Under the pieces are notes generated by a model. It saw nothing but the letters and a program-made list of their open reading frames with translations. It searched no databases and was not told where the DNA came from. Below, in pieces: positions 1-64,000 of a stretch of DNA of 64,000 nt; position 1 is the first letter of the stretch; each line of letters starts with the position of its first letter. The position numbers and the translations under genes are program-made. The stretch lies in assembly GCF_056712565.1 (NCBI RefSeq), contig NZ_CM160072.1; one strand, written 5' to 3'.

Positions 1-1022
1 GCTTCTGCAGTAATCACCGCGTTGCCGCCTACCGCCAGAATATTGGTCAGTTTCGACGGCAATACGGCATCCGCCGCGCCGCGTTTTTGCACCACCAGAT
101 GGCAATCGCCCATCTTCAGCAGTGCGGGTAAAGCGTCATACGATTGCAGCGGGAAGAATTGCATGTTGCGCAGTCCACGCTGTTGCGCCATTTTTTCCAG
201 TCGCGCTTTGCCGCCGCCCTGCCCGACAATGGCAAAAATCAGCGGTTCATCACGCAGGCGTTCGGCAGCTTCAATAACGTTTTCCAGCCCCTGCTTTTCA
301 CCAATATTGCCGGAGTAAAGAATGATTTTTTTGTTATCCGGCAGGCCAAGCTGGTTACGAAGGGCATCAACATCGACATCTGCGACATGCTGAAAACGGG
401 CAATTTCTGACCAGTTGGGGAAGAAGATGACGTTTTCTGCCGCCACGCCTTTTTCGATGGCTTTATTCATCATCGAACGCGAAATCGTGGAGACGTTATC
501 GACGTTATGCAGTCCGCTACGTTCGAACGCCGTTGCCAGCTGTGCCACTTTGCCGCCTTTGCCTTTTCCGGCAAGGCCCAGCCCCAGCATGGCGTCCACT
601 TCGTAATCCTGAATATGCAGCACGGTACGCGCGCCAGAGAGTTTCGCCAGCAGGCGCATTCCCGGCGTGCAAAACAGCGTTGGCACTACGCCGATAATGC
701 GATCCGGCTTCCAGCGACGTTGCGCCATCAACGGGAAAAAACTGCTGGCGGCAAAACTGCCGAGATGCAACAGGCGTTTCAGGGTGCTCGGCTGTTTTGG
801 CACGTACAGCGGGCAGCGCCACACCGTGGCGGCCCCCTCTTCTCGTTTGTACCGCCAGGCGGAATAGTTCTCGCCCACCTGCCATTGCGGGTAGTAAGGC
901 GGTGCGGTAATAACCCGCACCTCATGACCTTGTGCCGCCAGCCATTCCACCATCTCTCCGGTGTATTTGCCGATACCGGTTAACTCCGGCGAGTAGTTAA
1001 TGCCGTAGACCAGTATTTTCAT
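1..1022 (-). CDS. wcaI: Colanic acid biosynthesis glycosyltransferase WcaI, partial (N-terminal ~340 aa; 3' end lies beyond window start)
   Basis: Minus-strand frame open from ATG at 1022..1020 to window edge; hand translation begins [35 protein letters not shown]; start overlaps gmm stop (ATGA); not in ORF track because no in-window stop. Confidence 0.85.
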
Positions 1023-1501
1023 AATCCGGGTACTCCGGCACGCTTCTCAGCGAGAAAATAGGCGCGGCTGTTAGCGTGAACATTGTCACTGGCGAGCAGT
1101 GCGTCCGGGGTCAGCCAGCGGTAATCGTCATGCTGCTCATCCGGCAGTAACAGATCTTCTTCAGCGACTCTGAAGCGAAAACCGAGCACCACATAGTGAG
1201 TGGTGAAATCCGTGCCGGAGAAGTTATCGTCATAAAAGTGCTGCCAGACACCGTAAAACTGGCCTACTGTTATCGGTAGACGCAGCCCCAGTTCCGCCAT
1301 CGTCAGCCGCTCAAATGCGGCTTCCAGCATTTCGTCTTTCTGCACGCGCCCTCCCGGCACAAACCAGTAACCCTGTGCCGGGCGGTTGGTTCTTTTGCCA
1401 AGCAGAAACTCGCCGCGACTGTTCTCGACAATAAAGTCGAGAGAGACAAGCGGTGTGGAGCGCACTACCGTGGCAAAGTCTTCCTGACGTAAAAACATCA
1501 T
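1019..1501 (-). CDS. gmm: GDP-mannose mannosyl hydrolase (Nudix), WcaH; true start may be the second Met (1498)
   Basis: 160-aa [35 protein letters not shown], Nudix-like; position between fcl and wcaI. Confidence 0.9.
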
Positions 1502-2466
1502 TACCCCCGAAAGCGGTCTTGATTCTCAAGGAACCACTGGTAAGTGCTGGCAAGCCCCGCTTCCAGTGAGATTTCGTGATACCAGCCAAGCTGATGCAGG
1601 CGCGTCACATCCAGCAGTTTGCGCGGCGTACCATCCGGTTTACTGGCATCAAAAACCACCCGACCTTTGTAACCCACCACTTTGGCGATGGTTTGCGCCA
1701 GCTCGCGGATAGTGCAGTCAACGCCCGTGCCGACGTTAATGTGCGACAGCATCGGCTGGGTGTTCTCCAGCCAGACTTCGTGCGCCAGCTCCATCACATG
1801 AATGCTTGCCGCCGCCATATCATCGACATGCAGAAATTCACGCATCGGTGTACCGCTCCCCCACACCACCACGTCAGGCGCATTCTGTGCCGTCGCCTCG
1901 TGGAAGCGACGCAGCAATGCTGGGATCACATGCGAGTTACTCGGATGGAAGTTGTCGTGCGGCCCGTACAGGTTGGTCGGCATGACCGAGCGGTAATCGC
2001 GTCCGTACTGGCGGTTGTAAGATTCGCACAGTTTGATCCCGGCGATTTTGGCAATGGCATAAGGTTCGTTGGTCGGCTCCAGCGTGCCCTGCAACAACTC
2101 GCTTTCTGCCATCGGCTGTTTTGCCAGTTTCGGGTAGATGCAGGACGATCCGAGAAACAGCAGTTTGTTCACGTCGTTCTGATGCGCAGCGTGAATGATA
2201 TTGCTCTCAATCATCATGTTCTGGTAGATGAAATCCGCCGGATAGGTGTTGTTGGCAACAATGCCGCCCACTTTCGCCGCCGCCAGATAGACCTGGTCAA
2301 TACGTTCGCTGGCAAAGAAATCATGCACGGCGCGGCTGTCCAGCAGGTTCAGCTCGTCGCGGGTGCGTAATACCAGTTCCACATCACCGCGCTGTTCGAG
2401 CTGACGCCTGATGGCGGAACCAACCATCCCACGATGGCCAGCGATAAAGATTCGTTGTTTACGCAT
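1501..2466 (-). CDS. fcl: GDP-L-fucose synthase (WcaG)
   Basis: 321-aa [27 protein letters not shown]-type N-terminus; follows gmd. Confidence 0.92.
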
Positions 2467-2468
2467 GT

Positions 2469-3590
2469 TTATGACTCCAGCGCGATCGCCACGTCGTAGC
2501 CGTGAGATTTCAGCAGAGAGTGTTTTTTCGCCGCTTCGAGGTCATTAGCCACCATTTCAGACACCATCTCTCTGAGGGTGATTTCCGGTTTCCAGCCCAG
2601 TTTTTCGTGCGCTTTGGTCGGGTCGCCGAGCAGCGTTTCAACTTCTGCCGGGCGGAAGTAACGCGGGTCAACGGCGATAATCACATCGCCCGGTTTAACG
2701 CCCGGCGCATCATGCCCGGTGACGGAAACCACAATGCCCTTCTCTTCAACGCCCGTGCCTTCAAAGCGCAGTTTGATACCCAACTGTGCCGCCGCCATTT
2801 CTACGAACTGACGCACGGAGTACTGAACGCCGGTAGCAATTACGAAATCTTCCGGCTGTTCCTGTTGCAGCATCATCCACTGCATTTTTACGTAGTCTTT
2901 GGCATGGCCCCAGTCACGCAGGGAATCCATATTGCCGAGGTACAGGCACGACTCCAGCCCCTGGGCGATGTTGGCGATTGCGCGGGTGATTTTGCGGGTA
3001 ACGAAGGTTTCGCCGCGGCGCGGGGATTCATGGTTGAAGAGAATACCGTTACAGGCGTACATGCCGTAGGATTCGCGGTAGTTAACGGTGATCCAGTAGG
3101 CGTACAGTTTGGCGACCGCATACGGAGATCGCGGGTAGAACGGCGTGGTCTCTTTCTGCGGAATTTCCTGCACCAGACCGTACAGTTCAGAGGTGGAAGC
3201 CTGATAGAAACGGGTTTTCTTTTCCAGACCGAGGAAGCGGATCGCCTCCAGCAGGCGTAGCGTACCCATCGCATCGACGTCTGCGGTATATTCCGGTGAC
3301 TCAAAAGAAACCGCAACGTGGCTCATTGCGCCCAGGTTGTACACTTCATCCGGCTGCACTTCACGCAAAATACGCGTCAGGTTGGAGGTATCACTCAGGT
3401 CGCCATAATGCAGATGGAATTTCGGGTTGCAGGTGTGCGGATCCTGATAAATGTGATCCACGCGCTCGGTGTTGAATGACGATGCACGACGCTTAATACC
3501 ATGCACCTCGTAACCTTTTTCCAGCAGAAACTCTGCCAGGTAAGAACCGTCTTGTCCGGTTACACCGGTGATGAGAGCAACTTTTGACAT
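2469..3590 (-). CDS. gmd: GDP-mannose 4,6-dehydratase
   Basis: 373-aa [34 protein letters not shown], classic Gmd N-terminus. Confidence 0.95.
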
Positions 3591-3616
3591 GTCTTATTCC
3601 TCTGTATTTTTTGAAT

Positions 3617-4165
3617 TTATTCAGTTTCAACGCGTTCGCGTATCACCACTGCGGGATTCCCCCGGCAAACCACATTTGCCGGAAGCGATTTAAAAACACT
3701 GCTTCGCGCACCCACGACGGTGCCGTCGCCGATCGTGACGCCAGGGGCAACAAAAACATCTGTCGCCAGCCAGCATTTCTCGCCAATCACAATAGGCGTG
3801 GCGTTAATGGTGAAATGTTGACTTGCATGGTCGTGGCTCCCGGTGCATAAATAACTTTTTTGCGATATCACCGAATGTGCGCCAATGGTTATTTCACCGA
3901 GGGTATATAAATTGACGTCATCGCCGACCCACGCGTAATCACCTAAGGTTAATTTCCACGGATAGGTAATTTTTACTGACGGACGAATAACTACGTTTTT
4001 TCCTATTTTTGCGCCGAATAAACGTAATAAAAATGCCCGCCAGCGATACAATACTTGTGGCGACCAGGCAAATATTGTTGCCTGTACTGCCCACCACAAT
4101 TGCACTTTAATAGCGTTGCCACCCCGGAACCCTTTCGGCACCGAGAATCCACTTAAATCCTGCAT
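3617..4165 (-). CDS. wcaF: Colanic acid acetyltransferase WcaF (hexapeptide-repeat)
   Basis: 182-aa ORF; cluster position. Confidence 0.85.
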   Translation of the reverse strand: MQDLSGFSVPKGFRGGNAIKVQLWWAVQATIFAWSPQVLYRWRAFLLRLFGAKIGKNVVIRPSVKITYPWKLTLGDYAWVGDDVNLYTLGEITIGAHSVISQKSYLCTGSHDHASQHFTINATPIVIGEKCWLATDVFVAPGVTIGDGTVVGARSSVFKSLPANVVCRGNPAVVIRERVETE

Positions 4166-4180
4166 CGTTTTCCCTTATAT

Positions 4181-4936
4181 TCAGCTTTTGTTATATAAGG
4201 CTTTCGTCTTTGAGGTAGTACGTTGGCGTAAATGCCAGGATAATTCAGCCCAAAAGCCAGGCACGTGCAATATCTGCCGTTGGACTTTTTTGGCGTCAGC
4301 ACACAATTCCATATTATTGGTGGTAGATACCCCACCCATGGAAAATTCAGACACCAGACCATTGAGTTTTTTAAATGCATAACCGGCTTTATACATTTTG
4401 GCCGCCAGCGCGTAGTCGGACGAAACTTTATATTCCAGGTCATAACGCCATTTTTTCAAGCCGGATACCGGGAAAAATATCGCCTGATGACTGGCGGGCA
4501 GGCTGTGATAAATATACCAGCCCGGTTTGGCGCTACGTTTAATTTTATGCCCGTCGCCAAAATCCAGCAGCGCATCGCCAGTGATCATCACGTTATCTTT
4601 TTGTACTTTTAACTTACGGACAAAATTTGCGGCATCCTGATGAAAAATATCACCTGAGTTGAGAAACAACGCGAACTTGCCTTGTGCCATCGCAATGCCT
4701 TTGTTCATGGCGTCGTAGATACCGTTATCTGGCTCGCTGACAAAGCGTAGGTTATAGATACCCTTGAGATTTTCCAGGTACTCACAGGTGCCGTCATTGG
4801 AACCGCCATCGACAACAATCCATTCGAAGCTGATATCGTCCGCCTGCGCCAGATGCGCCAGATGCGCCAGCGAGGCGTGTGTTTTGACTATCCCTGCGAG
4901 GTTACGAAACGCGACAGTGATTATGCTAAGCAACAT
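4181..4936 (-). CDS. wcaE: Colanic acid glycosyltransferase WcaE (GT2)
   Basis: 251-aa [15 protein letters not shown]...DGGSNDGT; cluster position. Confidence 0.85.
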
Positions 4937-4946
4937 GTTCTTATTC

Positions 4947-6164
4947 TTACCTCGTAATATTTAACGCTTTTCGCAAAATAAACGGACAGACGATTAAAAA
5001 TGCATATTCCGGGCTAAATATCGAACCGGTAAAAAACAGCGATACCGGAGTAAAAAGATATAATTGCACGCGAAAATTGCGGTTATCACCAAAAGCGTTG
5101 ATCATCATTTTTATCACTTTCCCCATGTACCACAGCGATAAAAACACTGCGAACCAGGAAAAATAAATAATCAGCAGATACAAACCATTGTCTATGGTTT
5201 TTCCGACATCCGCACCGTTAAATATTCCGAATGATGCGACATATTCATAAAGTGAGCCAAATCTGACTACACCGTCAATATGGGTCAAAGAATAACCGAC
5301 CATCACCAGCGGACCGACAATACGATAATACGATGACGATCCTTCCGTGCCTAAATCACCCAGACGGGTGGAAATATAAGGAAATGCAATTACCACACCA
5401 ACCAGGAATACAGCCAGAGAAATCAATGCTAACGGTAACTTTTTCTTAATCGCCTCTTTATTCAGATATTGAAATGCCCACTCCAGCAAATAAAACAGGA
5501 TAAAGGTCATAACCCCTGAAAACGATCCGGATAATATTATCCCTGCGAGAATCATAGCATCGGTTTTAGGCGTTTTGATACCAAACTGTTTGATGCTGAG
5601 CCAAATTGAGATTAATGCCAGAGCGAAAAATGCCGGTTCGAAATAAAGTGCTGTCGTGCGCTTGCCGCCGAATTTGATGAAATTCAGCACATAGCTGTTG
5701 CTGTAAATCAGATATTTCGAAATCGATTCCATAATACTGCTGCCGCCGGTGAGGATAATTTGCGCCATCTCCACCGCCGCCAGCGCCACCACCAACCCGA
5801 CCACCAGATAAAAAAAGCGTAATATCTTGCGGTGGTTGTGGGGCGAAATCGTTTTAAAGCGAATACTCCACACCATGCCAATAATGATCACAATATAGAC
5901 AAACAGCATGGTTGAAGTGACGTATTTACTGGCATCCAACGACTGACCAAACAGGTAGTTAAACGCCGTGAGTCCCGCGCCAATCCCCAGGGCAATCATT
6001 AATTTTTTAACGCTGATGCGCTCTAAAAACAGCAGTAACAAGACAGGTAAAAAAGTGACGATGGTGATGGGGAAACTTTCACCAAGCTGGGCGATTTTGA
6101 CGTTAACCAGCAGGTAGATCAGCGGCAGCAGCAGGTAGCTACAGATTCTGATAGAAGTTGACAT
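4947..6164 (-). CDS. wcaD: Colanic acid polymerase WcaD (multi-pass membrane protein)
   Basis: ORF 4947..6236; start trimmed to internal Met ([15 protein letters not shown]) to give ~405 aa and relieve overlap with wcaC; many TM segments. Confidence 0.8.
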
Positions 6165-7356
6165 ACTCCTCCAGCATCTGTTGTCCACTGTAGGCGGCAC
6201 GGCTGCGCTGGCTGAACTCAGCCAGCGTGGTACCAAATACCGCCTGCGCGATTTCCGGTTTGCTTAACTGGACCAGTTGCAGCACGTCTTCTTCACTGAC
6301 GGTTTTACCGCCGGATTTTTGCAGCACTTCCCGCGCCGCGTCGCTATGGGTGGCAATCACCGGCACGCCAATCGATAGCGCCTCACACAAAATTAGCGGG
6401 TAGTTATCGACGCGAGAACTGAATACCAGCGCATCCATCTGATTGAGCGCGCTCATCAACTTGCGCTTGTCAGTTTCAAAGCCGTGATTAACCACGTTGC
6501 CAGCGGTGAACGGCGAGAACTTACCAAAGGTATGCAGTTCGATTTTGTCGCCCAGCGCCATCATCTCGCGTACCAGTTGCTGGTTAGTTTTGCCGTCGTA
6601 ACGCAGGTCATGCGCTACCACCGCGATTTTCGGCTTGCCCTGAGTTTCGCGCACCGGAGGCAAGTCCGCCAGAATCGCTTCGGTTGCCATATCAATGCCA
6701 TTATTGATAATCCGGCAACGCCCTGGACCGTACAGACTATTGAAAGCATCAGCCACATGCTGGCTGGGGGAAATAAACTGACAGCCCAGCGCCAGCATCT
6801 CACGGAATAACTGGCGTTTGCCCGCCACCAGCTGGTGTGCGCGATCAATCTTCACCGGCGGATAATTATTTAAGGTCGGGCATTTCTGGCAGCCCGTTTT
6901 CCAGCCTTCGCAACCGTCGGTAAAGGCGCAGCGTCCGGTAACGCTCCAGTGATCGTGCAGCGTCCAGACCAGAGTGACATCCGGTTTGTGGTTTTTCACC
7001 TTTTCGCAAAAGCGCACCACGCTCTTAAGATTTAGCCAGTAGCTGTGCAGCACATGAAAATGCAGAACCACCGGGCCCGGTGTGCGAGTAATGGTGCGAT
7101 ATAACTCATTGAAATTGCCAAACAGATCGCGATTAAACAGACGAAACAGGGCAATGTTCGCCATCGCGGTCATCTGCGGCGTATGTTTGATGACCTGCGG
7201 ATAGTTTTGATTGCTGACGCTCTCTTTGCCGCCTTTGCCGTAGCCGTAGACAAAATGTGACGCCAGCCCCTGTTGCAGCGCACGCTGGTGGAGATCTAAC
7301 GCCACACCTGCCGCCCCGCCTTCCGCCAGTCGCACATTAAATTGCAAAATATTCAT
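6139..7356 (-). CDS. wcaC: Colanic acid glycosyltransferase WcaC (GT1/GT4-like)
   Basis: 405-aa ORF MNILQFNVRLAEGGAAGVALDLH; cluster position. Confidence 0.85.
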   Translation of the reverse strand: MNILQFNVRLAEGGAAGVALDLHQRALQQGLASHFVYGYGKGGKESVSNQNYPQVIKHTPQMTAMANIALFRLFNRDLFGNFNELYRTITRTPGPVVLHFHVLHSYWLNLKSVVRFCEKVKNHKPDVTLVWTLHDHWSVTGRCAFTDGCEGWKTGCQKCPTLNNYPPVKIDRAHQLVAGKRQLFREMLALGCQFISPSQHVADAFNSLYGPGRCRIINNGIDMATEAILADLPPVRETQGKPKIAVVAHDLRYDGKTNQQLVREMMALGDKIELHTFGKFSPFTAGNVVNHGFETDKRKLMSALNQMDALVFSSRVDNYPLILCEALSIGVPVIATHSDAAREVLQKSGGKTVSEEDVLQLVQLSKPEIAQAVFGTTLAEFSQRSRAAYSGQQMLEEYVNFYQNL

Positions 7357-7841
7357 TTAATTACCTTCACTCGCGCTTTTTCTCCCACCACCAGCGCGTT
7401 GTCCGGGACAGAGTCGAGCACCACGCTGCCCGCGCCCACGGTGACGTTGTTACCAATCGTGATATCACCAAGAATAATGACGTTGGCACCGAGTTCGACA
7501 CCGTTACCAATGTGTGGACATGCCATGTTATCGGCCCCCCGATTGCCGATAGTGACGCCGTGGCGAATGGTGAAATCATCCCCCGCTACCACGTTTTTAT
7601 TGATCACTACGGCGTAACCGTGATGGATAGTGAAACGGCGGCCAATGGTCGCAGCGGCCTGGATTTCATAACCGAAAAAGCCTTCGGTGATAATGCGATA
7701 CAGCACCAGCAGCGGAGCCGCCCACAGATTGTTGAGAACGTTCTTTTTGCGCCACACTGAACAAAAATGGGCGACGCGATAGGCAAGCACCATGCAGCAC
7801 GGGCGTAAACTCCAGCTGTTGGCGCGCAGATCTTCCAGCAT
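7353..7841 (-). CDS. wcaB: Colanic acid acetyltransferase WcaB (serine acetyltransferase-like)
   Basis: 162-aa ORF with hexapeptide repeats; 4-nt overlap with wcaC. Confidence 0.85.
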   Translation of the reverse strand: MLEDLRANSWSLRPCCMVLAYRVAHFCSVWRKKNVLNNLWAAPLLVLYRIITEGFFGYEIQAAATIGRRFTIHHGYAVVINKNVVAGDDFTIRHGVTIGNRGADNMACPHIGNGVELGANVIILGDITIGNNVTVGAGSVVLDSVPDNALVVGEKARVKVIK

Positions 7842-7843
7842 CC

Positions 7844-8683
7844 TTAACGCCCCCGTATTCCTTCAGCCAGACGTTTGCCGTTACGCACCGATAGCAGCGT
7901 CAACAACGTCCGCCAGGTCATGCGTTTATTGCGGATCTGGTAGAGGGTAAACAGCTGATATTTTTTGCTGGCACGGTCGAATTTGTCTTTGTGCTTGCGG
8001 TAAAAGTGGAAGTATCCGGAGAATTTTTTCGGTGACGAGGTGATCTGCATTTCACCGTGATTGATATGCAGGATCTGCGTCGCCTCTTCCACTTTCCACG
8101 GTTCGCCGTACTCCACCACCATCCGCAGGAAAATGTCGTAATCCTGTGCCGCTTTCAGTTCGGTATCGAACAAACACTCTTTGAAACGCCACGCCCAGGT
8201 AAAGACCTGATTGCCAATGATATTGCGTTTGTAGAACAGGCGGCGTGAATACGGCGATTTGGGATACAGCGGCAAACTTGCCGGTTGGGAATAGACTTCG
8301 CCCTGGCAAACGTAGTCGTTAGCGTACAAAAAGGCGTGTGTGACCAGTTGCTGTTTATGGGCGAGGAAGACGCTCAGGCGGTTGGGTGTCCATTCATCAT
8401 CATCATCGATCCCGGTGATGTATTCCCCTTGCGCCAGCATAATCGCCTGGTTACGTACCGCGCACGCCCCGCTGTTAATGTCGTTGTGAATGTAGGTAAT
8501 ACGCGGGTCGTTGAGGGCTGTAACGTACTGTTGCAGCTGTTCCCAGGAGGTGGAGCAATCATCCACGATGATCATCTCCCAGTTACTGTAGTCCTGGCGC
8601 AGGACCGATTTTATCGCCCGAATCGCCAGTTGTTGGCGGTTCCAGGTCGGCATATAGATTGAGATCAGCGGATTGTCTTTCAT
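7844..8683 (-). CDS. wcaA: Colanic acid glycosyltransferase WcaA (GT2)
   Basis: 279-aa ORF MKDNPLISIYMPTWNRQQLAIRAIKSVLRQDY. Confidence 0.85.
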   Translation of the reverse strand: MKDNPLISIYMPTWNRQQLAIRAIKSVLRQDYSNWEMIIVDDCSTSWEQLQQYVTALNDPRITYIHNDINSGACAVRNQAIMLAQGEYITGIDDDDEWTPNRLSVFLAHKQQLVTHAFLYANDYVCQGEVYSQPASLPLYPKSPYSRRLFYKRNIIGNQVFTWAWRFKECLFDTELKAAQDYDIFLRMVVEYGEPWKVEEATQILHINHGEMQITSSPKKFSGYFHFYRKHKDKFDRASKKYQLFTLYQIRNKRMTWRTLLTLLSVRNGKRLAEGIRGR

Positions 8684-8811
8684 AGGTTGTTCTCCCGGAG
8701 TGTCGAGATGTTCTGCCGGTTTATAAGCTTGTTTACGGCTTCTGTTGCCGGATGCGGCGCGAACGGAGGTCGGATAAGATGCGTCAGCATCGCATCCGAC
8801 AGCGGATCTCG

Positions 8812-10974
8812 TTATTTCGCGTCCGACTTATATTCGTATTCGTAATAGCCATAATCCTGATACGCGCTGGCGCGGCGGAAGATGGAGTTCAGAATCACCC
8901 CTTTCACCGGAATACCGTTTTGCTCAAAGCGGCTCAGACTGGTTTCCACTTCTTTCAATGTGTTGACCGCATAACGCGCCACCATTAACGTGGTTCCGAC
9001 ATGACGACCAACAATTGCGGCATCGGTCACTGCCAGAATCGGCGGCGTATCAATCAACACCAGGTCGTAGTTTTTACTCGCCCAGTTCACCAGTTCGGCA
9101 AAGCGTTCGCTCATCAACAGTTCAGAAGGATTTGGCGGTACCTGACCGCGCGGGATCAGGTCAAATTTGGCAATAGAGGTCGGTTTAGCCGCGGTAGTAA
9201 TATCGCCCTGACCAATCAGAATTTCCGACAGGCCATTAACGTTATTGGTGCCCAACAGCTCGTGGGTATAACCTTTGCGCATATCGCAGTCGATCAACAA
9301 CACCCGTTTATTGGTCTGACTGATCACCGCCGCCAGGTTGGCGCAGACAAAGGTTTTACCGATTGACGGGCTAACCCCGGTCATCATCAACACATTGTTC
9401 TGCGCCTGCATCATCGCGAAGTGCAGACTGGTACGCAGACTGCGGATGGCTTCAATCGCCAGATCGGTTGGATTCCCCACCGCCAGTAGCTGGCTCTGTT
9501 TATAGCGTTTAATCCCTTTGATGGTTTTGACGCTATCGCGCGCTTTCTGCCATTCCGACAACGGGATGCTGGCATAGACGCTGATACCGTGTTCTTCCAG
9601 CACCTGCGGGCTTTCGATGCCACGATTAAACAACGAGCGCAGCAGTACACCCACGATAGAGAGCATCAGGCCAAGGATAATCGCGCCGAGGATAATCAGC
9701 CCTTTCTTCGGTTTCAGTACACCTGGCTGGGTGATTGCCGGGTCAACAATGCGCACATCGCCGACGGTGCTGGCTTCGGTGATTTTCAGCTCCTGCTCTT
9801 TATTCAGCAGCTGCATATAGACCTGCTGACCAGACTCGACATCGCGGGTCAGACGGACAATCTCCTGCTGGGTTTTCGGCATCGCCGTTACGCGACCATT
9901 AAGTTTGGCTTTTTCGTCTTCCAGCGCCTGCCGTTTCTCCAGCAGCGTGCGATACGCCGGGTGAACTTTGGTGTACAGCTTGGAGATTTCCGCTTCTTTA
10001 AAGGTCAGTTCGTTCAATTGTGCGTCGATGTTCACCATCGAATCGAGCACCGCTTTCGCTTCCAGCGGCAGATCAACAGAATCTTTATCCTGACGGAAGG
10101 CATTCAATTTATTTTCGGCAACATCAAGGCGGCTACGTACTTCCGGTAACTGTTGCGCGAGGAAGGCGAGGCTTTTCGACGCTTCCGCGGATTTGCGCTC
10201 AATATTTTGTTCCTGATAGTTACGGGCGATGCTGTTAAGAATGTCGCGGATCTGTTCGCGATCTTCACCGGTATAAGTCAGGCTCAGTACGCCTGCGTCT
10301 TTGCCGTTCTCCGTTACCGTCAGGCTGTTTTGCAGTTGATTGATCATCCCCAGCGTGGAGTATTTGGTGACGGTAAACTCACTGCCCGGGCGGGCGTGAA
10401 TGGCTTCAACCATCAGCGTGACGCCTTCTTTTTTCAGCATCTGGCCCGCTTGCCCACGGGCGCTAAAGCCGCCATCGCTGCTCAGAGTGTAGTTTTTATC
10501 GTCCAGCACATTAAGCGTAAACACCTGATCCGCCATCTCTTTCGGGCGGTTAAAGGTGGTCACTTTTACCGTCTCGTTCTGGCGTCCCATCAGGCGATCC
10601 CAGCCCGCACCGAAAATCGGGAACGTGTTTTTGCTCACTGCAATATCGAGGTCGAGATCGTCCACCGTTTTACCAAGCACCAGACGCGAACGAATCAACT
10701 GGATCTCGGCGTCCGATGCTGGCGGTTTGTTGGCTAATGCCGAACCAATGTCCTGCACTAACGAATTGCCGCTGTTTTGCTCGATTTGTACCAGTGCGTC
10801 GGCACTATAAATCGGCGTGGCGAAGAAGGTGTAAACCACGGCACAGAGGGCAAATACGGCGGTGATGCCAATTACCCACCAGCGCGCTTCAATGACGGTG
10901 CCGACCAGGCGACCAATATCGATTTCATCACTGCCCGTTACCGGAGCGGCATGTTGTTTTACTTTTTCTGTCAT
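8812..10974 (-). CDS. wzc: Tyrosine autokinase / polysaccharide co-polymerase Wzc
   Basis: ORF 8812..11010; start set at MTEKVKQHAAPVTGSDEIDIGRL (~720 aa); Walker A GVSPSIGKT; C-terminal Tyr-rich tail YQDYGYYEYEYKSDAK. Confidence 0.9.
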   Translation of the reverse strand: MTEKVKQHAAPVTGSDEIDIGRLVGTVIEARWWVIGITAVFALCAVVYTFFATPIYSADALVQIEQNSGNSLVQDIGSALANKPPASDAEIQLIRSRLVLGKTVDDLDLDIAVSKNTFPIFGAGWDRLMGRQNETVKVTTFNRPKEMADQVFTLNVLDDKNYTLSSDGGFSARGQAGQMLKKEGVTLMVEAIHARPGSEFTVTKYSTLGMINQLQNSLTVTENGKDAGVLSLTYTGEDREQIRDILNSIARNYQEQNIERKSAEASKSLAFLAQQLPEVRSRLDVAENKLNAFRQDKDSVDLPLEAKAVLDSMVNIDAQLNELTFKEAEISKLYTKVHPAYRTLLEKRQALEDEKAKLNGRVTAMPKTQQEIVRLTRDVESGQQVYMQLLNKEQELKITEASTVGDVRIVDPAITQPGVLKPKKGLIILGAIILGLMLSIVGVLLRSLFNRGIESPQVLEEHGISVYASIPLSEWQKARDSVKTIKGIKRYKQSQLLAVGNPTDLAIEAIRSLRTSLHFAMMQAQNNVLMMTGVSPSIGKTFVCANLAAVISQTNKRVLLIDCDMRKGYTHELLGTNNVNGLSEILIGQGDITTAAKPTSIAKFDLIPRGQVPPNPSELLMSERFAELVNWASKNYDLVLIDTPPILAVTDAAIVGRHVGTTLMVARYAVNTLKEVETSLSRFEQNGIPVKGVILNSIFRRASAYQDYGYYEYEYKSDAK

Positions 10975-10976
10975 TC

Positions 10977-11420
10977 TTATACCTGCTCTGCGTTCAATGC
11001 CTGCGCCCACTGGCGGGCAGACCGTTCAAGTAATGTGTACACCGCTGCAAACGTTTCCCGGCTTTTGCGATACGGATCGGGGATTTCACATTCGTTATCC
11101 CAGTGACCAAACAGCATCACTTTGCCGCGCATCTCGGGTGCCATCTCGCATAAGCGTTCGATATGGCGATTTTCCATGGTCAAAATCAGGTCGTAGTTGC
11201 GACACAGACGGCGGCTGATTTGCCGTGCACAGTGACCTTCCAGAGACAGTTGATGTTCTGCGGCGACGCTGATAGCAGTAGGGTCAGCGCCCTTACCGAC
11301 CAGCGCGCCGAGTCCAGCGGACTCCACTTTCAGCTCCGGGTGATAACGTTGCAGTAAGCGTTCCGCCGTCGGGGAGCGGCAAATATTGCCGACACAGACA
11401 ACTAAGATGTTGTTAAACAT
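10977..11420 (-). CDS. wzb: Low-molecular-weight protein-tyrosine phosphatase Wzb
   Basis: 147-aa ORF with CVGNICRSP P-loop motif. Confidence 0.92.
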   Translation of the reverse strand: MFNNILVVCVGNICRSPTAERLLQRYHPELKVESAGLGALVGKGADPTAISVAAEHQLSLEGHCARQISRRLCRNYDLILTMENRHIERLCEMAPEMRGKVMLFGHWDNECEIPDPYRKSRETFAAVYTLLERSARQWAQALNAEQV

Positions 11421-11425
11421 GACGA

Positions 11426-12565
11426 TTACCAGTTATGAATGTCGCTGGCTGTATCCGTCATGTAACGGACACCGCTAATAGTTGGCAGCAACTGATTGAT
11501 CAGACGGTTCCAGCGGGAAACCGGGGCGGTGGTGACATACACCACGTCATAAGGTTGCAGGCGGAATTCTGTCGCCATCACCAGCGACGTGGCATCGGAC
11601 ATATCCAGCTGGTAGATATTGGCAATCTTGCCATTACGCCCGCCCTCGCCTTTCAGCGGACGAATGACAAAGATGCCGCTGGCGTTGGAGGTGGTCATGT
11701 CGATGCCTTCAGCATTGCCCAGGGCTTCAGTCAGGGTCATGCCGCTAAAGTCCATTTTCAGGGTGCTCTGTTTCTTCACTTCACCCATCACAAATACTTT
11801 CAGATCATCATTACGCGGCACGTAAAGAATATCGCCGGGGTAAAGCAGTCGGTTCTGATTGAGGTCGCCGTTTTGCATCAGCGCCTGCAAAGAAATGCGC
11901 TCTTCACGACCATTGTGTGTTAGCACCACGTTGCGCCAGTCAGCGGTATCAGTCAGGCCACCCGCGGCGTTGATGGCATCGAGAATGGTCAGTGGCACGT
12001 TGGTGATCGCCTGTTGGCCGGATTTATTCACCTGTCCGGAGATATAGGCCTTTTGTGAGCGGAAGGCGGCGATATTAACGTCCACCTGCGGGTCAGCGAT
12101 GTACGTCGCTAAGCGCCCGGTAATATCACTGCGGATTTCAGCGAGCGTTTTCCCCACGACGTGAACCTTGCCGATATACGGGTAGAACATGGTGCCGTCA
12201 GGCTGTACCCAGTTGCCGGTGTCGCTGGAGCTGCGGTACTGACCAGCTGGCGTGGTGAGTTCCGGGTGATCCCAGACGGTGACATTAAGAACGTCCCCCG
12301 GCCCGACGCGATACTGATAATTCGCGATCTCACTTTCCAGCGTCATATTGGGGCGCGCTACGTTGGGGCGTGGGCGTAATTGATCAATCAGGCGCGGGGT
12401 CAGCGGATAAACATTCACCATTTTGTCGAGATCGAAATCAGCGTCCTGCTGTTTGATGACGTCTTTCCCCATCGTCGACATATTGCTGCCCGGAAGTACT
12501 GTGCAACCGCTTATCAAGGTTACTGACACCAATAATGGCATCAATTTCATTTTGGATTTCATCAT
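11426..12565 (-). CDS. wza: Outer-membrane polysaccharide export lipoprotein Wza
   Basis: 379-aa ORF; lipoprotein signal LISGC; first gene of the capsule operon. Confidence 0.92.
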
Positions 12566-12743
12566 TGTTTATTTATCACTTTGGCAGAGTAATTATCCTG
12601 TGCACTATTAATAGCAATGTCGCCATGCACATTTACCTTGCAGTTAATTGAATAAAAATTTAACTGGCATCAGTCCTAAAAAAATTGATTTCATCCGCAG
12701 GCTATTGACAGAATAATTCAGACTGGTCTTTCAGGCATCCAGA

Positions 12744-12755
12744 CACGCTACCGCC
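12744..12755 (-). promoter_or_regulatory. ops element (GGCGGTAGCGTG) within JUMPstart, RfaH-dependent antitermination site in the wza leader
   Basis: Plus strand reads cacgctaccgcc at 12744..12755, i.e. GGCGGTAGCGTG on the wza strand, ~180 nt upstream of the wza start. Confidence 0.75.
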
Positions 12756-12968
12756 CCTGGCTTTTTAGCTACCAATACACTGATTTAGCTTAATTTTTAA
12801 AACCCTCTCAACATACAGTCGTTGATGAGAAAGGGTTATTGCGGAAATTAACTTCCGAATATAAGGTGACATTATGGTAATTGAATATTGGCTCTCCAAT
12901 AATGCAGGAGGAAGTGTTACAGCTAACGGAATAGCAGGCAAGGTAACAATTCGGCAATTGGCTATTTT

Positions 12969-12982
12969 TAAGAATTATATTA
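12969..12982. promoter_or_regulatory. Possible RcsAB-box-like sequence upstream of wza (taagaattatatta)
   Basis: Loose resemblance to the RcsAB box consensus as I recall it; location in capsule promoter region. Confidence 0.25.
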
Positions 12983-13223
12983 AGTGTCATTCAATATGGT
13001 TTTTAGGAGTTTCTTTAGGTTGACAATATTTAATATAGTGTCTCCACATGCGATATTTCTTAAATAATGTTTTATTATTACCACTTTTAATTCAGGGATA
13101 ATGTGAGGTTATTACCCTCAAATAATATGAGATAAATAGTGCTGCAACATTGCATTTTTGCCCCGATTTATCCATGATCGAATTGTGACATTTGTCATAC
13201 AACGAATAGGTTTTGTACTTACT

Positions 13224-14807
13224 ATGGAATGGATTGCCGATCCGTCTATCTGGGCCGGGTTAATCACGCTGATTGTGATCGAACTGGTCCTCGGCATTGA
13301 TAACCTGGTCTTTATTGCCATCCTCGCCGAAAAACTACCGCCGAAGCAGCGCGACCGCGCACGGGTTACCGGGCTGCTGCTGGCGATGTTAATGCGCCTG
13401 TTACTGCTGGCGTCAATCTCCTGGCTGGTCACCCTGACTCAACCGCTGTTCAGCTTCCGCTCGTTTACCTTTAGCGCCCGCGATTTAATCATGCTGTTTG
13501 GTGGTTTCTTCCTGCTGTTCAAAGCCACGATGGAGCTGAACGAACGGCTGGAGGGGAAAGACAGCAATAACCCCACACAACGCAAAGGTGCGAAGTTCTG
13601 GGGGGTGGTGACACAAATTGTGGTACTGGACGCCATCTTCTCACTCGACTCGGTGATTACCGCCGTCGGGATGGTCGACCATTTACTGGTCATGATGGCC
13701 GCCGTCGTTATCGCTATCAGCCTGATGTTGATGGCCAGCAAGCCATTAACGCAATTTGTTAACAGTCACCCGACGATCGTTATTCTCTGCTTAAGCTTCC
13801 TGTTGATGATTGGCTTTAGCCTGGTGGCAGAAGGTTTCGGCTTCGTCATTCCGAAAGGCTACCTGTACGCTGCTATTGGTTTCTCGGTGATGATCGAGGC
13901 GCTCAATCAGTTGGCTATCTTTAACCGGCGACGTTTTCTTTCCGCTAACCAGACGCTGCGCCAGCGGACTACCGAAGCGGTAATGCGCCTGCTTAGCGGG
14001 CAAAAAGAAGATGCGGAACTGGACGCCGAAACCGCGTCTATGCTGGTGGATCATGGTAACCAGCAAATCTTTAATCCGCAGGAACGGCGGATGATTGAGC
14101 GGGTACTTAATCTTAACCAGCGCACCGTCAGCAGCATTATGACGTCGCGCCACGATATTGAGCATATCGATCTCAACGCACCGGAAGAAGAAATCCGCCA
14201 GTTGCTGGAGCGAAATCAGCATACGCGGCTGGTGGTTACCGACGGTGATGACGCAGAAGATTTGCTCGGTGTTGTTCACGTTATCGACCTGCTACAACAG
14301 TCTCTGCGCGGCGAACCGCTCAACCTGCGGGTGTTGATTCGCCAGCCGCTGGTGTTCCCGGAAACCTTGCCGTTGTTACCTGCCCTGGAGCAGTTCCGTA
14401 ATGCCCGCACGCACTTTGCTTTTGTAGTGGATGAGTTTGGCTCGGTGGAAGGAATTGTGACATTAAGTGACGTCACTGAAACCATTGCCGGTAACTTACC
14501 GAACGAAGTGGAAGAGATCGACGCCCGCCATGATATTCAGAAAAATGCGGACGGTTCCTGGACGGCGAATGGTCATATGCCGCTGGAGGATCTGGTGCAA
14601 TATGTGCCGCTGCCGCTGGATGAAAAACGTGAATATCACACCATTGCCGGGCTATTGATGGAATATTTGCAGCGTATTCCAAAACCTGGCGAAGAAGTTC
14701 AGGTGGGGGATTATTTGCTTAAAACGTTGCAGGTGGAAAGCCATCGCGTGCAGAAGGTGCAAATTATTCCGCTACGTAAGGATGGCGAGATGGAGTACGA
14801 AGTGTGA
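13224..14807 (+). CDS. yegH: Inner-membrane TerC-family / CBS-CorC-domain protein YegH
   Basis: ORF 13158..14807; start set at [34 protein letters not shown]; TM N-terminus, CBS-like C-terminus. Confidence 0.85.
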
Positions 14808-14881: not shown

Positions 14882-15220
14882 ATGAGAAAAAAGCTGGCTT
14901 TTCTTGATACCAGTCTTGACGATTTACGCGCATTTCCAGAATCGTCTCGACAGGAAATTGGCTATCAACTCGACAGGATCCAACAAGGGTTAAACCCATA
15001 CGACTGGAAACCTTTTTCAACTATCGGCCCTGGTGTGCGAGAGATTCGTACTCGCGATGCTGATGGGATCTATCGCGTCATGTATATCGCAAAATTTGAA
15101 GAAGCGGTTTACGTATTGCATTGTTTTCAAAAGAAAACACAGACTACCAGTCAATCGGATATTGATTTAGACAAACGACGCTATAAAGAACTTGTTCAGG
15201 AGCGGAAAAATGAAAATTGA
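14882..15220 (+). CDS. Type II toxin, RelE/ParE superfamily (HigB / Gp49-like)
   Basis: 112-aa ORF with ...GIYRVMYIAKFEEAVYVLHCFQKKTQTTSQSDIDLDKRRYKEL, typical of Gp49-like RelE/HigB toxins; immediately followed by an HTH antitoxin gene. Confidence 0.7.
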   Translation: MRKKLAFLDTSLDDLRAFPESSRQEIGYQLDRIQQGLNPYDWKPFSTIGPGVREIRTRDADGIYRVMYIAKFEEAVYVLHCFQKKTQTTSQSDIDLDKRRYKELVQERKNEN

Positions 15221-15500
15221 AACCTTTGATAGTGTGTGGGATGCGGTGAGTGACACCCCTGAACAAGCGGAAAATATGCGGATCCGTGCCGAACTTGTAA
15301 CGATCATTAATAACTGGATTGAACAACAAGGGTTTAGCCAGGCTCAGGCAGCGTCTGCTTTAGGGGTCACTCAACCTCGCATATCTGAACTTGCCAGAGG
15401 TAAGATCCAGATCTTTAGTATCGATAAATTGATCACCATGATGGCTCATGCAGGATTGCATATTCAACGTATTGAAATTCAATATCCACATGCTGCTTAG
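15210..15500 (+). CDS. XRE-family HTH antitoxin (HigA-like)
   Basis: Start chosen at MKIETFDSVWDAVSDTPEQAENMRIRAEL with GGAG Shine-Dalgarno; HTH motif QAQAASALGVTQPRISELARGK; overlaps toxin 3' end by 11 nt. Confidence 0.7.
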   Translation: MKIETFDSVWDAVSDTPEQAENMRIRAELVTIINNWIEQQGFSQAQAASALGVTQPRISELARGKIQIFSIDKLITMMAHAGLHIQRIEIQYPHAA

Positions 15501-22487: not shown

Positions 22488-23336
22488 TCATGCTTCGTCT
22501 GGTTGCCAGCCTTCCGTATACCAGATATGCAACAACGCATAAGAACGCCAAGGTTTCCAGCGCTCGGCATAACGGCGGATTTGTGCCGGTGTCATTCCCG
22601 GAAATCGCTGTTTAATCAGATAATCATCCGGCAGAAAAACATCTTTCGCCTGCCAGCCGCGCAAGGCGAAATAATTCGCCGTCCAGCGCCCGATCCCCGG
22701 AAAAGTTTGCAGTTTTTTCATCGCTTGTTCTACGTCGCCCGGTATTGTCATTGGTAAGGTGCCCTCCAGCGCCGCATTTGCCAGATGAATCAGTGCCTCT
22801 GCCCGTTTCAACGGCATACCTAACGCTTTTAATGCCTGCGGGTCGGCTGCAGCCAGCCGCTGAGGCGTGGGGAAGCAGACATAATCCGGAAAATCATCCA
22901 GCCGTTCGCCATAAAGCTGTGCCACTCTGGCGGTCAATTTTGCCGCCATCGCCACGCTCACCAGTTGGCCTAAAATCGCCCGCACGCCCTGCTCAAAAGC
23001 ATCAACACTGCCGGGTAAACGCAATCCGGGCCGCGCCGCGCCTAACTTGCCCAACGCACCGTTAACAATCTGCGGGTTACATTGCAGATCAAACAGGCAG
23101 CTCATTTTCGCCAGACACTCAGCGGCAACAGGTTCTAAACCTGCACTTAAATTTATGTGCAGAGTATGGCGGGCTATATCCGGAATAGCAGTCACCACGC
23201 CGCGATATTCGCCTACCGCCAGACTACAGGCATAATAACTGTCCGCGCCCGTTTCCACGCTGCTCACCGCACGGGCGGCGAGAAATCCCAACATCCACGA
23301 CCAGTCATACGGCGGCTGCCAGTTCAGGGTATACAT
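22488..23336 (-). CDS. alkA: 3-methyladenine DNA glycosylase II
   Basis: 282-aa ORF MYTLNWQPPYDWSWMLGFLAARAVSSVE. Confidence 0.9.
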   Translation of the reverse strand: MYTLNWQPPYDWSWMLGFLAARAVSSVETGADSYYACSLAVGEYRGVVTAIPDIARHTLHINLSAGLEPVAAECLAKMSCLFDLQCNPQIVNGALGKLGAARPGLRLPGSVDAFEQGVRAILGQLVSVAMAAKLTARVAQLYGERLDDFPDYVCFPTPQRLAAADPQALKALGMPLKRAEALIHLANAALEGTLPMTIPGDVEQAMKKLQTFPGIGRWTANYFALRGWQAKDVFLPDDYLIKQRFPGMTPAQIRRYAERWKPWRSYALLHIWYTEGWQPDEA

Positions 23337-28189: not shown

Positions 28190-28362
28190 AAGAAATCCTT
28201 TCTTAGAGAATTATTGAGGTCCGGTATCATACCGATTGCAATAATGAAATAAGAGCAAACGAAGAAACTTTCAGAATTAGGCCCGGCGGCGCAGAAAATT
28301 TTGCTATTCGCCTCGCAAGAACGGAGAGCCGTCGATTGACACTAAGGGCGGAGTGACATAAT

Positions 28363-28513
28363 TTCAGGAGTGAGGGTAGAGCGGGGTTTCCCCCGCCCTG
28401 GTAGTCTTAGTAAGCTGGCCAGCTAATGACTAAGAGCACCACGATGATGAGTAGCTTCATCATGACCCTTTCCTTATTTAAGGCCCCTTCCTCGGGAGGG
28501 GCTTTCCCGTTTC
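28363..28513 (+). ncRNA. sibA: Sib antisense sRNA, copy 1 (approximate ends)
   Basis: Plus-strand transcript antisense to the ibs ORF, ending at the GC hairpin ggcccc...gggaggggc followed by a short T-run (28481..28513). Confidence 0.45.
28407..28463 (-). CDS. ibsA: Ibs-family type I toxin, 18 aa (MMKLLIIVVLLVISWPAY)
   Basis: Minus-strand ATGATGAAGCTACTCATCATCGTGGTGCTCTTAGTCATTAGCTGGCCAGCTTACTAA, read by hand; too short for the ORF track; A/B assignment is by position only. Confidence 0.7.
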   Translation of the reverse strand: MMKLLIIVVLLVISWPAY

Positions 28514-28690
28514 AGCGTCCCGCTGAAATCTTCGGCTTACCTCCTTTCGCCCTGTATGCAGTCTATCGCTGACTTGCGGATAAAATAGTTTCAAGTGTGA
28601 TTATTGCGTAACGACTCGCAAAGAATATTTGCTGGCAGGATCGCAGACTGCAAAGTCTGCGGATTGACAATTGGACCGTGAAGGCATACT

Positions 28691-28841
28691 TTCAGGAGTG
28701 AGGGTAGAGCGGGGTTTCCCCCGCCCTGGTAGTCTTAGTATGCTGGGTAGCTAATGACTAAGAGCACCACGATGATGAGTATCTTCATCATGACCCTTTC
28801 CTTATTTAAGGCCCCTTCCTCGGGAGGGGCTTTTCCGTTTC
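28691..28841 (+). ncRNA. sibB: Sib antisense sRNA, copy 2 (approximate ends)
   Basis: Second repeat unit; same hairpin terminator at 28809..28841. Confidence 0.45.
28735..28791 (-). CDS. ibsB: Ibs-family type I toxin, 18 aa (MMKILIIVVLLVISYPAY)
   Basis: Minus-strand small ORF within second repeat unit, read by hand. Confidence 0.7.
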   Translation of the reverse strand: MMKILIIVVLLVISYPAY

Positions 28842-40688: not shown

Positions 40689-41303
40689 TCACGCCCCACA
40701 ATCACCAATCTGATCCACCACCGTCAGATACCAGTCACTGTCATAACTGTAAAGTTGACTTAAATAAAATACCAGTCCATCGTTACTCTCTTCTGGCGCA
40801 GCGACCACACGCACGGCCCCGTATTCCATTCGACGCGCTGCGGCAATCTGCGCATCAGAAATAGTATTTTGCGGTGAACCAAACATCTGCGTGAAGACCA
40901 AACTACGGCTGACTTTATGGTGAACATCGCTATTGCTAATAAAATACCCCTGCTTATTCCAGCCACGTTCGCAGTTAAATTTCGGGATAGCTTTCTTATT
41001 AAATTCGTCATCTCGCGGAACATGTTCCCCTGCCGAGGGCCATGGGAAATACTCGGGAACAGGTTGCCTGAAATTAATTTGCTTAAGATTTTCAACATCC
41101 ATCGAAGCACCACGGTGGAAAAGAACATACAAACCCGTTTTTTTATCAATTAACGAGTTGATTAATTGGGCATCTTCTTGCTGAAAGCCCATAATCACCT
41201 TTCTGGCTGTTTCCTCCAGCGTACACCCGGCATTGGCGGGTAAAGAAAAGAATATCAGCCCCACCAGCATCATTCCTTTTTTTAACATCAGCATTGTTTG
41301 CAT
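40689..41303 (-). CDS. Accessory island gene A: secreted/periplasmic protein of unknown function (signal peptide, AXA-type cleavage site ANA-G)
   Basis: 204-aa ORF MQTMLMLKKGMMLVGLIFFSLPANAGC; last gene of a four-gene minus-strand operon; no family recognised. Confidence 0.55.
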   Translation of the reverse strand: MQTMLMLKKGMMLVGLIFFSLPANAGCTLEETARKVIMGFQQEDAQLINSLIDKKTGLYVLFHRGASMDVENLKQINFRQPVPEYFPWPSAGEHVPRDDEFNKKAIPKFNCERGWNKQGYFISNSDVHHKVSRSLVFTQMFGSPQNTISDAQIAAARRMEYGAVRVVAAPEESNDGLVFYLSQLYSYDSDWYLTVVDQIGDCGA

Positions 41304-41354
41304 CTTCTCATCATGGGGCTCATATTACACATTTAACAATTTTCAGGATAAACC

Positions 41355-43463: not shown

Positions 43464-43473
43464 AGATATCCTT

Positions 43474-44190
43474 TTAATTAGGTTCAAAAATTTTAAATTC
43501 ATTCCACGGCAATTTTTTCCAGTTACTGGATGGATCTTTCAACCATGCAGTGACTTCCTTTAAATCACGGTTCGCAGTGGCGACGGGGGTATCGTATATC
43601 ATTAACCATTTTTGTCGGGCGCGAACATAAGCACTGGCATAATCTTCCCATGAAGCGAAACAATCTTGTGCTCTTTGAGCATTCAGTAATAACACTATCC
43701 AGGCCTGGTTTTCATCGCACCAGCCTAAACCGGCGATGCAACGAGTTAAAAAAGCAGTGCGCATACAGTCAAACGCCAGCCCATCCAGAACCTGGCCTTG
43801 TGCTGCCAGTTGTTCGTAAAAATCATGTGGAGAATTACCAAGCCCTGTAGCCCAGCGCTGTAATATAACGCCAATTTGTTGACGGAAATCTTCGTTGCTT
43901 TGGTAAGTTTCTGTTCCTAGCTCTTGTTTAACCTGTAGTGCAAGTTGTTGACGCTTATCATCAGTCAACTTTAAATCTAACGTGAAGCCATTTACTGACA
44001 GTCCATTACGACGAGCAACTATATCACCAATTGCTAATGCCCACTTACGTCTCTTTGTTGCTCGTCTTTTGTCCTTGATTAGATCCTTTTCTTTTTCTTT
44101 AGCAATAAAAGCATCGATTTGTGGTTTGTTTTTTTTGTATCTATAGATAAAAATAAATATTGCGACCAGGAGAACAATGATAAGACTCAT
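43474..44190 (-). CDS. Accessory island gene C: single-pass membrane-anchored protein of unknown function (possibly DUF1266-like, unverified)
   Basis: 238-aa ORF; N-terminal TM helix MSLIIVLLVAIFIFIY then soluble domain; start ATG shares one base with gene D stop (TAATG). Confidence 0.55.
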   Translation of the reverse strand: MSLIIVLLVAIFIFIYRYKKNKPQIDAFIAKEKEKDLIKDKRRATKRRKWALAIGDIVARRNGLSVNGFTLDLKLTDDKRQQLALQVKQELGTETYQSNEDFRQQIGVILQRWATGLGNSPHDFYEQLAAQGQVLDGLAFDCMRTAFLTRCIAGLGWCDENQAWIVLLLNAQRAQDCFASWEDYASAYVRARQKWLMIYDTPVATANRDLKEVTAWLKDPSSNWKKLPWNEFKIFEPN

Positions 44191-47253: not shown

Positions 47254-47397
47254 TTAATTTCGATTATTTTTCCCGGATGGAAAATTCTTAGAAACCGATC
47301 ACATACAGCTGCATTTATTAAGGTTATCATCCGTTTCGCTGAAAAACATAACCCATAAAATGCTAGCTGTACCAGGAACCACCTCCTTAGCCTGTGT

Positions 47398-47424
47398 AAT
47401 CTCCCTTACGCAGGCTTATTTTTT
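47398..47424. mobile_element. Probable P2-type att core at the prophage/host junction
   Basis: Reverse complement aaaaaataagcctgcgtaagggagatt matches the P2 att core as I recall it at 25 of 27 positions; lies between yegQ and ogr. Confidence 0.4.
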
Positions 47425-63904: not shown

Positions 63905-64000
63905 CTAACGGTCGAGGTGAGCCAGGATAATCTCTTCAATCATCTGCACATCCTCACCGGTAAAGCCGAGCAGAGGACGCGCCGGATAATCAATTTTCTT
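63905..64000 (-). CDS. Partial CDS, 3' end only (31 codons + TAG); possibly the P2 S-like tail completion gene
   Basis: Minus-strand frame open from the window edge (KKIDYPARPLLGFTGEDVQMIEEIILAHLDR stop); identity inferred only from P2 gene order. Confidence 0.35.
   Translation of the reverse strand, partial: KKIDYPARPLLGFTGEDVQMIEEIILAHLDR

Follow-up and report, generated by a model that had tools for sequence, protein, structure and literature searches.

The 12-nt sequence GGCGGTAGCGTG at positions 12744-12755 (minus strand) of the window, which is the whole 64-kb (64,000 nt) stretch of DNA analysed here, is very probably the ops element of the JUMPstart sequence that precedes the E. coli colanic-acid operon (wza-wcaM), where it would load the elongation factor RfaH for transcription to the end of the operon. 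The wza ops is already known, having been described in K-12, and binding of RfaH to it has been shown in CFT073. Our assignment draws on the motif, its strand and non-coding position, the JUMPstart match, identity to studied strains and conservation across genera; RfaH occupancy at the wza ops and the general mechanism of RfaH are taken from the literature.

A single ops element on the sense strand of wza

The element and the genes that follow it are placed in the window as listed below.

12744-12755, minus strand: ops element GGCGGTAGCGTG (exact unique match; cross-genus conservation; CFT073 RfaH-ChIP site at the same -190 position)
11426-12565, minus strand: wza, first gene of the operon, outer-membrane polysaccharide export protein (379-aa ORF; PRK15078; RefSeq)
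10977-11420, minus strand: wzb, tyrosine phosphatase of the export machinery (NCBIfam equivalog Wzb, 327 bits; RefSeq)
8812-10974, minus strand: wzc, tyrosine kinase of the export machinery (NCBIfam equivalog Wzc, 1519 bits; RefSeq)
1-8683, minus strand: distal part of the operon, wcaA to gmm and part of wcaI (by mapping from the ATCC 11775 annotation)

The sequence-only reading had proposed an exact ops on the wza strand, and this was borne out. Across the whole window GGCGGTAGCGTG was found as a single exact copy on the minus strand, which also carries wza-wzb-wzc, so that the motif reads on the sense (non-template) strand of wza; its 5' base precedes the ATG of wza by 190 nt. No exact copy appeared in any of 100 dinucleotide-preserving shuffles. 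The 12-mer agrees with the 12-nt ops consensus GGCGGTAGnnTG, which has no second match in the 64 kb, and it is the sole match to the relaxed consensus GGCGGTAGNNTG, for which 0.06 matches were expected per window. A position inside a coding region on re-annotation had been named beforehand as the outcome that would speak against the element. No ORF of at least 20 aa overlaps the 12-mer, nor does any annotated CDS in the RefSeq annotation of 100%-identical records, and the ops finding therefore stands. The element also serves, as the same reading had anticipated, as an internal check which fixes the strand and the start of the colanic-acid operon in the window.

That the 12-mer is a functionless chance occurrence has a negligible probability in our estimate. 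Such a view could point to the ops core GGCGGTAG, which is present six times in the window against 1.25 expected, that is, five times besides the ops.

25-36, 13331-13342 and 23209-23220, minus strand; 47016-47027 and 53599-53610, plus strand: extra copies of GGCGGTAG (window scan)

The hosts of the five extra copies are wcaI, yegH (antisense), alkA, yegQ and a prophage tail-sheath gene (antisense). None of these copies was accepted as an ops, because all lie in coding sequence and are without T11 and G12, and two are antisense; they are likely codon-usage by-products. The exact 12-mer, on the other hand, has a chance expectation of about zero in the window, is embedded in a full JUMPstart match and is kept across genera, and the conservation and covariance-model results described below refute the chance explanation.

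The complete JUMPstart and its relatives

The ops 12-mer forms the 3' end of a longer element.

12744-12782, minus strand: complete 39-nt JUMPstart CAGTGTATTGGTAGCTAAAAAGCCAGGGGCGGTAGCGTG (Rfam RF01707)

Alignment with characterised JUMPstart sequences, which had been suggested as a check, gave the expected result: a whole-window Rfam scan matched model positions 1-38 of RF01707 (JUMPstart) at 57.3 bits (gathering threshold, 35 bits), and the leader does not differ from its counterparts in K-12 MG1655 and CFT073. Over the 217 nt that begin with the JUMPstart and end at the wza ATG, all three strains agree in every base; the -190 spacing and the operon are shared as well, and we are dealing with the same element in another strain. 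The entire wza-yegH spacer (~690 nt) is 99% identical to both K-12 MG1655 and CFT073. Over the aligned ~690 nt the window differs from K-12 at nine positions, and the differences from the two strains are in the ~30 nt immediately upstream of the JUMPstart, with a few bases further up. The wza and wzb genes are intact in the window but are shown as pseudogenes in the CFT073 RefSeq record.

A second JUMPstart is found in the same region of the chromosome, outside the window, in the galF-rfbB spacer ahead of the rfb (O-antigen) genes. The 39-nt module recurs there with its ops unchanged (60 bits against the Rfam model) and, like the wza JUMPstart, heads a long polysaccharide operon. The JUMPstart is all that the rfb and wza leaders have in common. 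Since their similarity starts and stops at its borders, the JUMPstart can be regarded as a discrete module. The two operons differ in that rfb is constitutively transcribed and RfaH-bound in the wild type, whereas wza is cryptic (PMC9765446). The group 1 capsule clusters (K30 and Klebsiella cps) also carry a JUMPstart/ops before a wza-wzb-wzc export module, which they share with the wza operon, and in these clusters a stem-loop follows wzc and RfaH is necessary for the genes beyond it. The group 1 JUMPstart, however, is located between galF and wzi and is constitutive, while the colanic-acid operon has no wzi, has yegH as its neighbour and has an Rcs-dependent promoter.

Conservation of the leader across genera

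Within the species, the leader (12566-12860) was found in 4824 of 5426 complete E. coli genomes. For comparison beyond E. coli, bacterial contigs, with one genome per species, were scanned independently of the ops with the 20-nt block TTCTGTCAATAGCCTGCGGA (12694-12713), which lies 42 nt downstream of it. This query excludes the ops, so that the presence of an ops at the loci recovered is a genuine test. The scan returned 20 loci, 19 of them in Enterobacteriaceae of at least six genera: Escherichia, including E. whittamii, Salmonella enterica subsp. diarizonae, Citrobacter amalonaticus, Kluyvera, Pseudocitrobacter, Superficieibacter and one unclassified Enterobacteriaceae isolate. Each of these 19 loci has GGCGGTAGC(G/A)TG 41-42 nt upstream of the TTCTGTCAATAGCCTGCGGA block, and a wza orthologue (82-100% amino-acid identity) was located 140-267 nt downstream in the 18 loci with enough downstream sequence. 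The remaining locus, from Epilithonimonas, has neither ops nor wza and was taken as a chance match to TTCTGTCAATAGCCTGCGGA.

In the 20-sequence alignment, 11 of the 12 columns of the ops are invariant, compared with 16/27 in the 5' half of the JUMPstart and 2/76 upstream of it. The Rfam JUMPstart threshold was exceeded in each of the seven orthologous leaders scanned. Near-invariance of the ops across genera while its flanks diverge argues for selection acting on the ops sequence.

In this set, the leader of the soil isolate E. coli MEI4BO-21 is only ~76% identical to that of the window but identical to the leader of Kluyvera genomosp. 3, and its homology to the normal E. coli leader starts exactly at the JUMPstart. 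The head of the cluster may thus have been replaced by horizontal transfer. In Citrobacter amalonaticus, an insertion of ~119 nt separates conserved leader blocks (alignment A4, columns 225-343).

Is the JUMPstart conserved as an RNA structure?

In Rfam the JUMPstart is treated as a cis-regulatory RNA, and its model includes a 5-bp stem in which UUGGU (12771-12775) pairs with GCCAG (12757-12761), and this stem is pairable in all 20 leaders. It could be argued that the JUMPstart is conserved mainly as an RNA structure, in which its hairpin, or pairings over a longer range with sequence just ahead of the start codon, would act on mRNA stability or translation, with RfaH loading being secondary; to this interpretation we give very little probability. 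RNAalifold does propose long-range pairings, of UUGGUAG in the JUMPstart with CUGCCAA and of UUAUUCUGU with ACAGGAUAA near the ATG. Nevertheless, two-sided covariation was absent from the stem in the 20 leaders: four of its five pairs are invariant and the fifth varies one-sidedly (U-G, U-A, C-G), and for this reason the alignment speaks neither for nor against the hairpin. The 31 RNAalifold pairs likewise contain no two-sided changes, and pairs are broken in two sequences; the long-range helices link invariant blocks with zero covariation. The leader as a whole folds no more stably than its shuffles (z = -0.09). With a fold no better than shuffles, no two-sided covariation and helices devoid of covariation, the structured-RNA interpretation is unsupported. 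Moreover, the most conserved part of the element is the single-stranded ops 12-mer, and ChIP places RfaH loading at the wza ops in CFT073.

The leader downstream of the ops

The same alignment revealed further conserved sequence between the ops and wza.

12566-12743, minus strand: rest of the leader, from ops to ATG (cross-genus alignment A4 and column statistics)
12694-12713, minus strand: wza-specific block TTCTGTCAATAGCCTGCGGA (alignment A4)
12660-12684, minus strand: wza-specific block TTTTTTTAGGACTGATGCCAGTTAA (alignment A4)
12566-12605, minus strand: pre-ATG block of 40 nt (35/40 columns invariant)

Because TTCTGTCAATAGCCTGCGGA was the search pattern, the invariance of that block is by construction. 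TTCTGTCAATAGCCTGCGGATGAA, TTTTTT.GGA...ATGCCAGTTA and the 40-nt pre-ATG stretch hardly vary from Escherichia to Kluyvera and Superficieibacter, and the downstream blocks are also kept in Salmonella diarizonae, Citrobacter and Pseudocitrobacter; in the leader alignment they are absent from the rfb leader. No canonical Shine-Dalgarno sequence was found at the usual distance before the wza ATG. On the strength of this conservation it is conceivable, although rather unlikely, that the three blocks form an undescribed cis-regulatory module. Such a module might act as a platform for RfaH-coupled, Shine-Dalgarno-independent initiation of wza translation, or as a site for an unknown protein or sRNA. 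That the blocks are both real and new as a regulatory or translation-initiation module is unlikely.

The colanic-acid operon and its strain background

The wza ORF matches NCBIfam PRK15078 at 729 bits, covering residues 1-379 of 380. According to the annotation of ATCC 11775, the operon wza-wzb-wzc-wcaA…wcaM comprises 20 genes over ~22.7 kb, and the ops heads this long operon for colanic-acid synthesis and export. The window includes its first 12.5 kb, with the edge falling inside wcaI and wcaM lying beyond it. The part of the window checked against ATCC 11775, positions 12400-13300, is 100% identical, and we infer collinearity for the remainder. This region is also 100% identical to S88, APEC O1 and others, where RefSeq annotates wza, a hypothetical protein and yegH. 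ATCC 11775, S88, APEC O1 and the other identical strains are, we take it, members of phylogroup B2, and the window is an E. coli chromosome of phylogroup-B2 type.

The earlier claim of RfaH-dependent antitermination of a long capsule operon needs qualification. Its JUMPstart-RfaH part is supported by ChIP in CFT073, by leader identity and by the literature, but the word capsule does not fit, as colanic acid, the M antigen, is an exopolysaccharide of the slime type and not a serotype capsule.

Two further features of the operon and its upstream spacer deserve comment.

12874-13023, plus strand: hypothetical protein WP_162829205.1, 49 aa (PGAP; the only annotated CDS in the wza-yegH spacer)
8684-8811, minus strand: wzc-wcaA spacer with a REP-like palindrome (…tgtcggatgcgatgctgacgcatcttatccgacc…) (direct sequence reading)

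The WP_162829205.1 CDS is 119 nt from the ops, divergent from wza, and overlaps a promoter-like site described below; none of the NCBIfam families matched it, and the gene call is probably spurious. As for the sites downstream that RfaH may override, we infer by analogy that the REP-like palindrome is a candidate internal polarity or termination point, which RfaH-modified polymerase would read through. The analogy is with the wzc-wbaP stem-loop, an attenuator at the corresponding place in group 1 capsule clusters, together with the need for RfaH downstream of wzc described in the literature. In the terminator scan the palindrome was not scored as an intrinsic terminator. The operon holds no excess of intrinsic terminators (18 against 15.7 expected), and hence the scan identified no specific target of antitermination. 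As a separate observation, the Rfam algC RNA motif (RF02929) was matched within the colanic-acid operon, outside the window, at 78 bits against a gathering threshold of 33.8 (locus L005, 14889-14938); the match lies in the cpsB-cpsG spacer, upstream of the phosphomannomutase gene cpsG.

Promoter candidates and the position of the ops in the transcript

The spacer upstream of the JUMPstart was inspected for a promoter and for Rcs boxes.

12871-12898, minus strand: sigma-70-like match TGGAGA-16-CATAAT (consensus scan; candidate only)

The consensus scan gave no other sigma-70-like match on this strand of the wza-yegH spacer. With one found against 3.6 expected in shuffles, a promoter-like match is not evidence alone. 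Transcription starting from it would put the ops at about +110 of the transcript. A second promoter reading, TTGAGA-17-CTAAAT, ends just before the JUMPstart and is weaker in K-12 (CTGAGA). Both candidates are upstream of the ops, and with either one the ops would be in the transcript. The ops presumably lies downstream of the transcription start in the window's strain, for which the RfaH ChIP signal and the sigma-70 peak upstream of wza at the identical CFT073 leader are indirect support. Our use of the word leader rests on this deduction together with the CFT073 ChIP data. The transcription start of the wza operon has reportedly been mapped (Stout 1996).

For the idealised RcsAB consensus TAAGAATATTCCTA, no match at up to three mismatches was found in the wza-yegH spacer. 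Copies of the degenerate RcsB box TNRGANNNNTCYNA are about as frequent as chance predicts (45 against 57 expected), and its two one-mismatch matches in the spacer upstream of the JUMPstart (12969-12982 and 13049-13062) consequently carry no weight.

Just upstream of the JUMPstart there is a hairpin (12798-12838, minus strand; -13 to -16 kcal/mol, z -2 to -3.4), which is shared by the window, K-12 and CFT073. Five of the nine differences from K-12 fall in the ~30 nt that separate the hairpin from the JUMPstart (12783-12812). In the window's strain TTTTAAAAATT comes after the hairpin, and the sequence of the region is TTGAGA-17-CTAAAT, whereas K-12 has CTGAGA…. The hairpin and the 12783-12812 region could constitute a strain-variable promoter or attenuator.

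RfaH at the wza ops in studied strains

Direct evidence for RfaH at this element comes from CFT073. Data set S2 of Hustmyer 2022 (PMC9765446) lists the wza ops of this strain as GGCGGTAGCGTG at 2424955-2424966, in a UTR on the non-template strand, 190 nt from the start of the first gene (2424776), with an RfaH signal (Y) extending to wcaL. The RefSeq coordinates of CFT073 agree with this entry. In a delta-hns delta-stpA background, ChIP-seq detected RfaH on wza-wcaM, with the signal gone in delta-rfaH, and a sigma-70 peak was present upstream of wza (PMC9765446). Binding of RfaH at CFT073 wza was seen only in that background; wild-type CFT073 in rich medium gave no RNAP signal at wza, and the operon was described as "likely cryptic", with H-NS silencing at initiation (PMC9765446). 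In K-12 under laboratory conditions, RfaH is reported at only two operons (PMC9765446, introduction). Other papers, among them reviews, place the wca operon under JUMPstart-RfaH antitermination, and RfaH is stated to be necessary for the genes downstream of wzc.

Given that H-NS silences the operon at initiation in the wild type in rich medium, RfaH matters only after the promoter fires. It might be proposed that the ops is genuine and binds RfaH, but has little effect on colanic-acid output because RcsAB, H-NS and DsrA govern initiation. The silencing by H-NS at the promoter (PMC9765446) and the lack of an excess of intrinsic terminators in the operon are compatible with this proposal, and a 2013 paper still worded RfaH control as "presumably cps". 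We nonetheless judge it highly unlikely. The near-invariance of the ops across genera with diverged flanks argues for selection, and the stated necessity of RfaH beyond wzc likewise counts against it. So does Navasa 2014, reported to be a direct test of this control, whose title reports RfaH transcriptional control of colanic-acid synthesis. RfaH in K-12 was reportedly also surveyed by ChIP-chip (Belogurov 2009). Loading of RfaH at the ops, with consequences for expression of the operon, is our favoured interpretation.

Other features of the window

Several further features were recorded in the window. Between yegH and asmA (14882-15500, plus strand), identical B2-type records show a RelE/ParE-family toxin gene and a helix-turn-helix (antitoxin-like) gene. 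Between mdtA and yegL are two Sib antitoxin RNAs (28336-28478 and 28664-28806, plus strand; RF00113, 141 and 139 bits), both opposite annotated Ibs type I toxin genes. The CyaR sRNA (RF00112, 100 bits; 47336-47421, plus strand) adjoins ogrK, and from 47526 up to the window edge at 64000 there is a P2-like prophage with tail, baseplate and lysis genes and gpD. Four genes between yegP and yegQ (40689-45404, minus strand) encode PcfJ-domain, DUF1266, DUF4034 and hypothetical proteins. As yegP and yegQ are adjacent in K-12, this segment may be a small accessory island.

A model for RfaH recruitment at the head of the operon

The observations can be placed in a sequence of events built on the general mechanism of RfaH (pausing at ops, exclusion of NusG, recruitment of ribosomes), as summarised in PMC9765446. 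RNA polymerase would start at the Rcs-activated upstream promoter, enter the leader and pause at the ops, where the non-template GGCGGTAGCGTG would be exposed. RfaH would then bind the exposed DNA and the polymerase at about position 12745 and remain through ~22 kb. There it would keep NusG off, limiting Rho-dependent polarity, and suppress pausing and termination. It would also help ribosomes to reach an mRNA that offers no obvious Shine-Dalgarno sequence at its first gene, and the lack of this sequence before wza is consistent with RfaH-assisted recruitment of ribosomes. The outcome would be transcription of the ~22.7-kb, 20-gene operon to its end.

To a specialist the wza ops is unsurprising and raises no new question. 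For the biology of E. coli, it would mark the point at which RfaH takes over a 20-gene operon for a slime polysaccharide after the Rcs stress response has fired the promoter.
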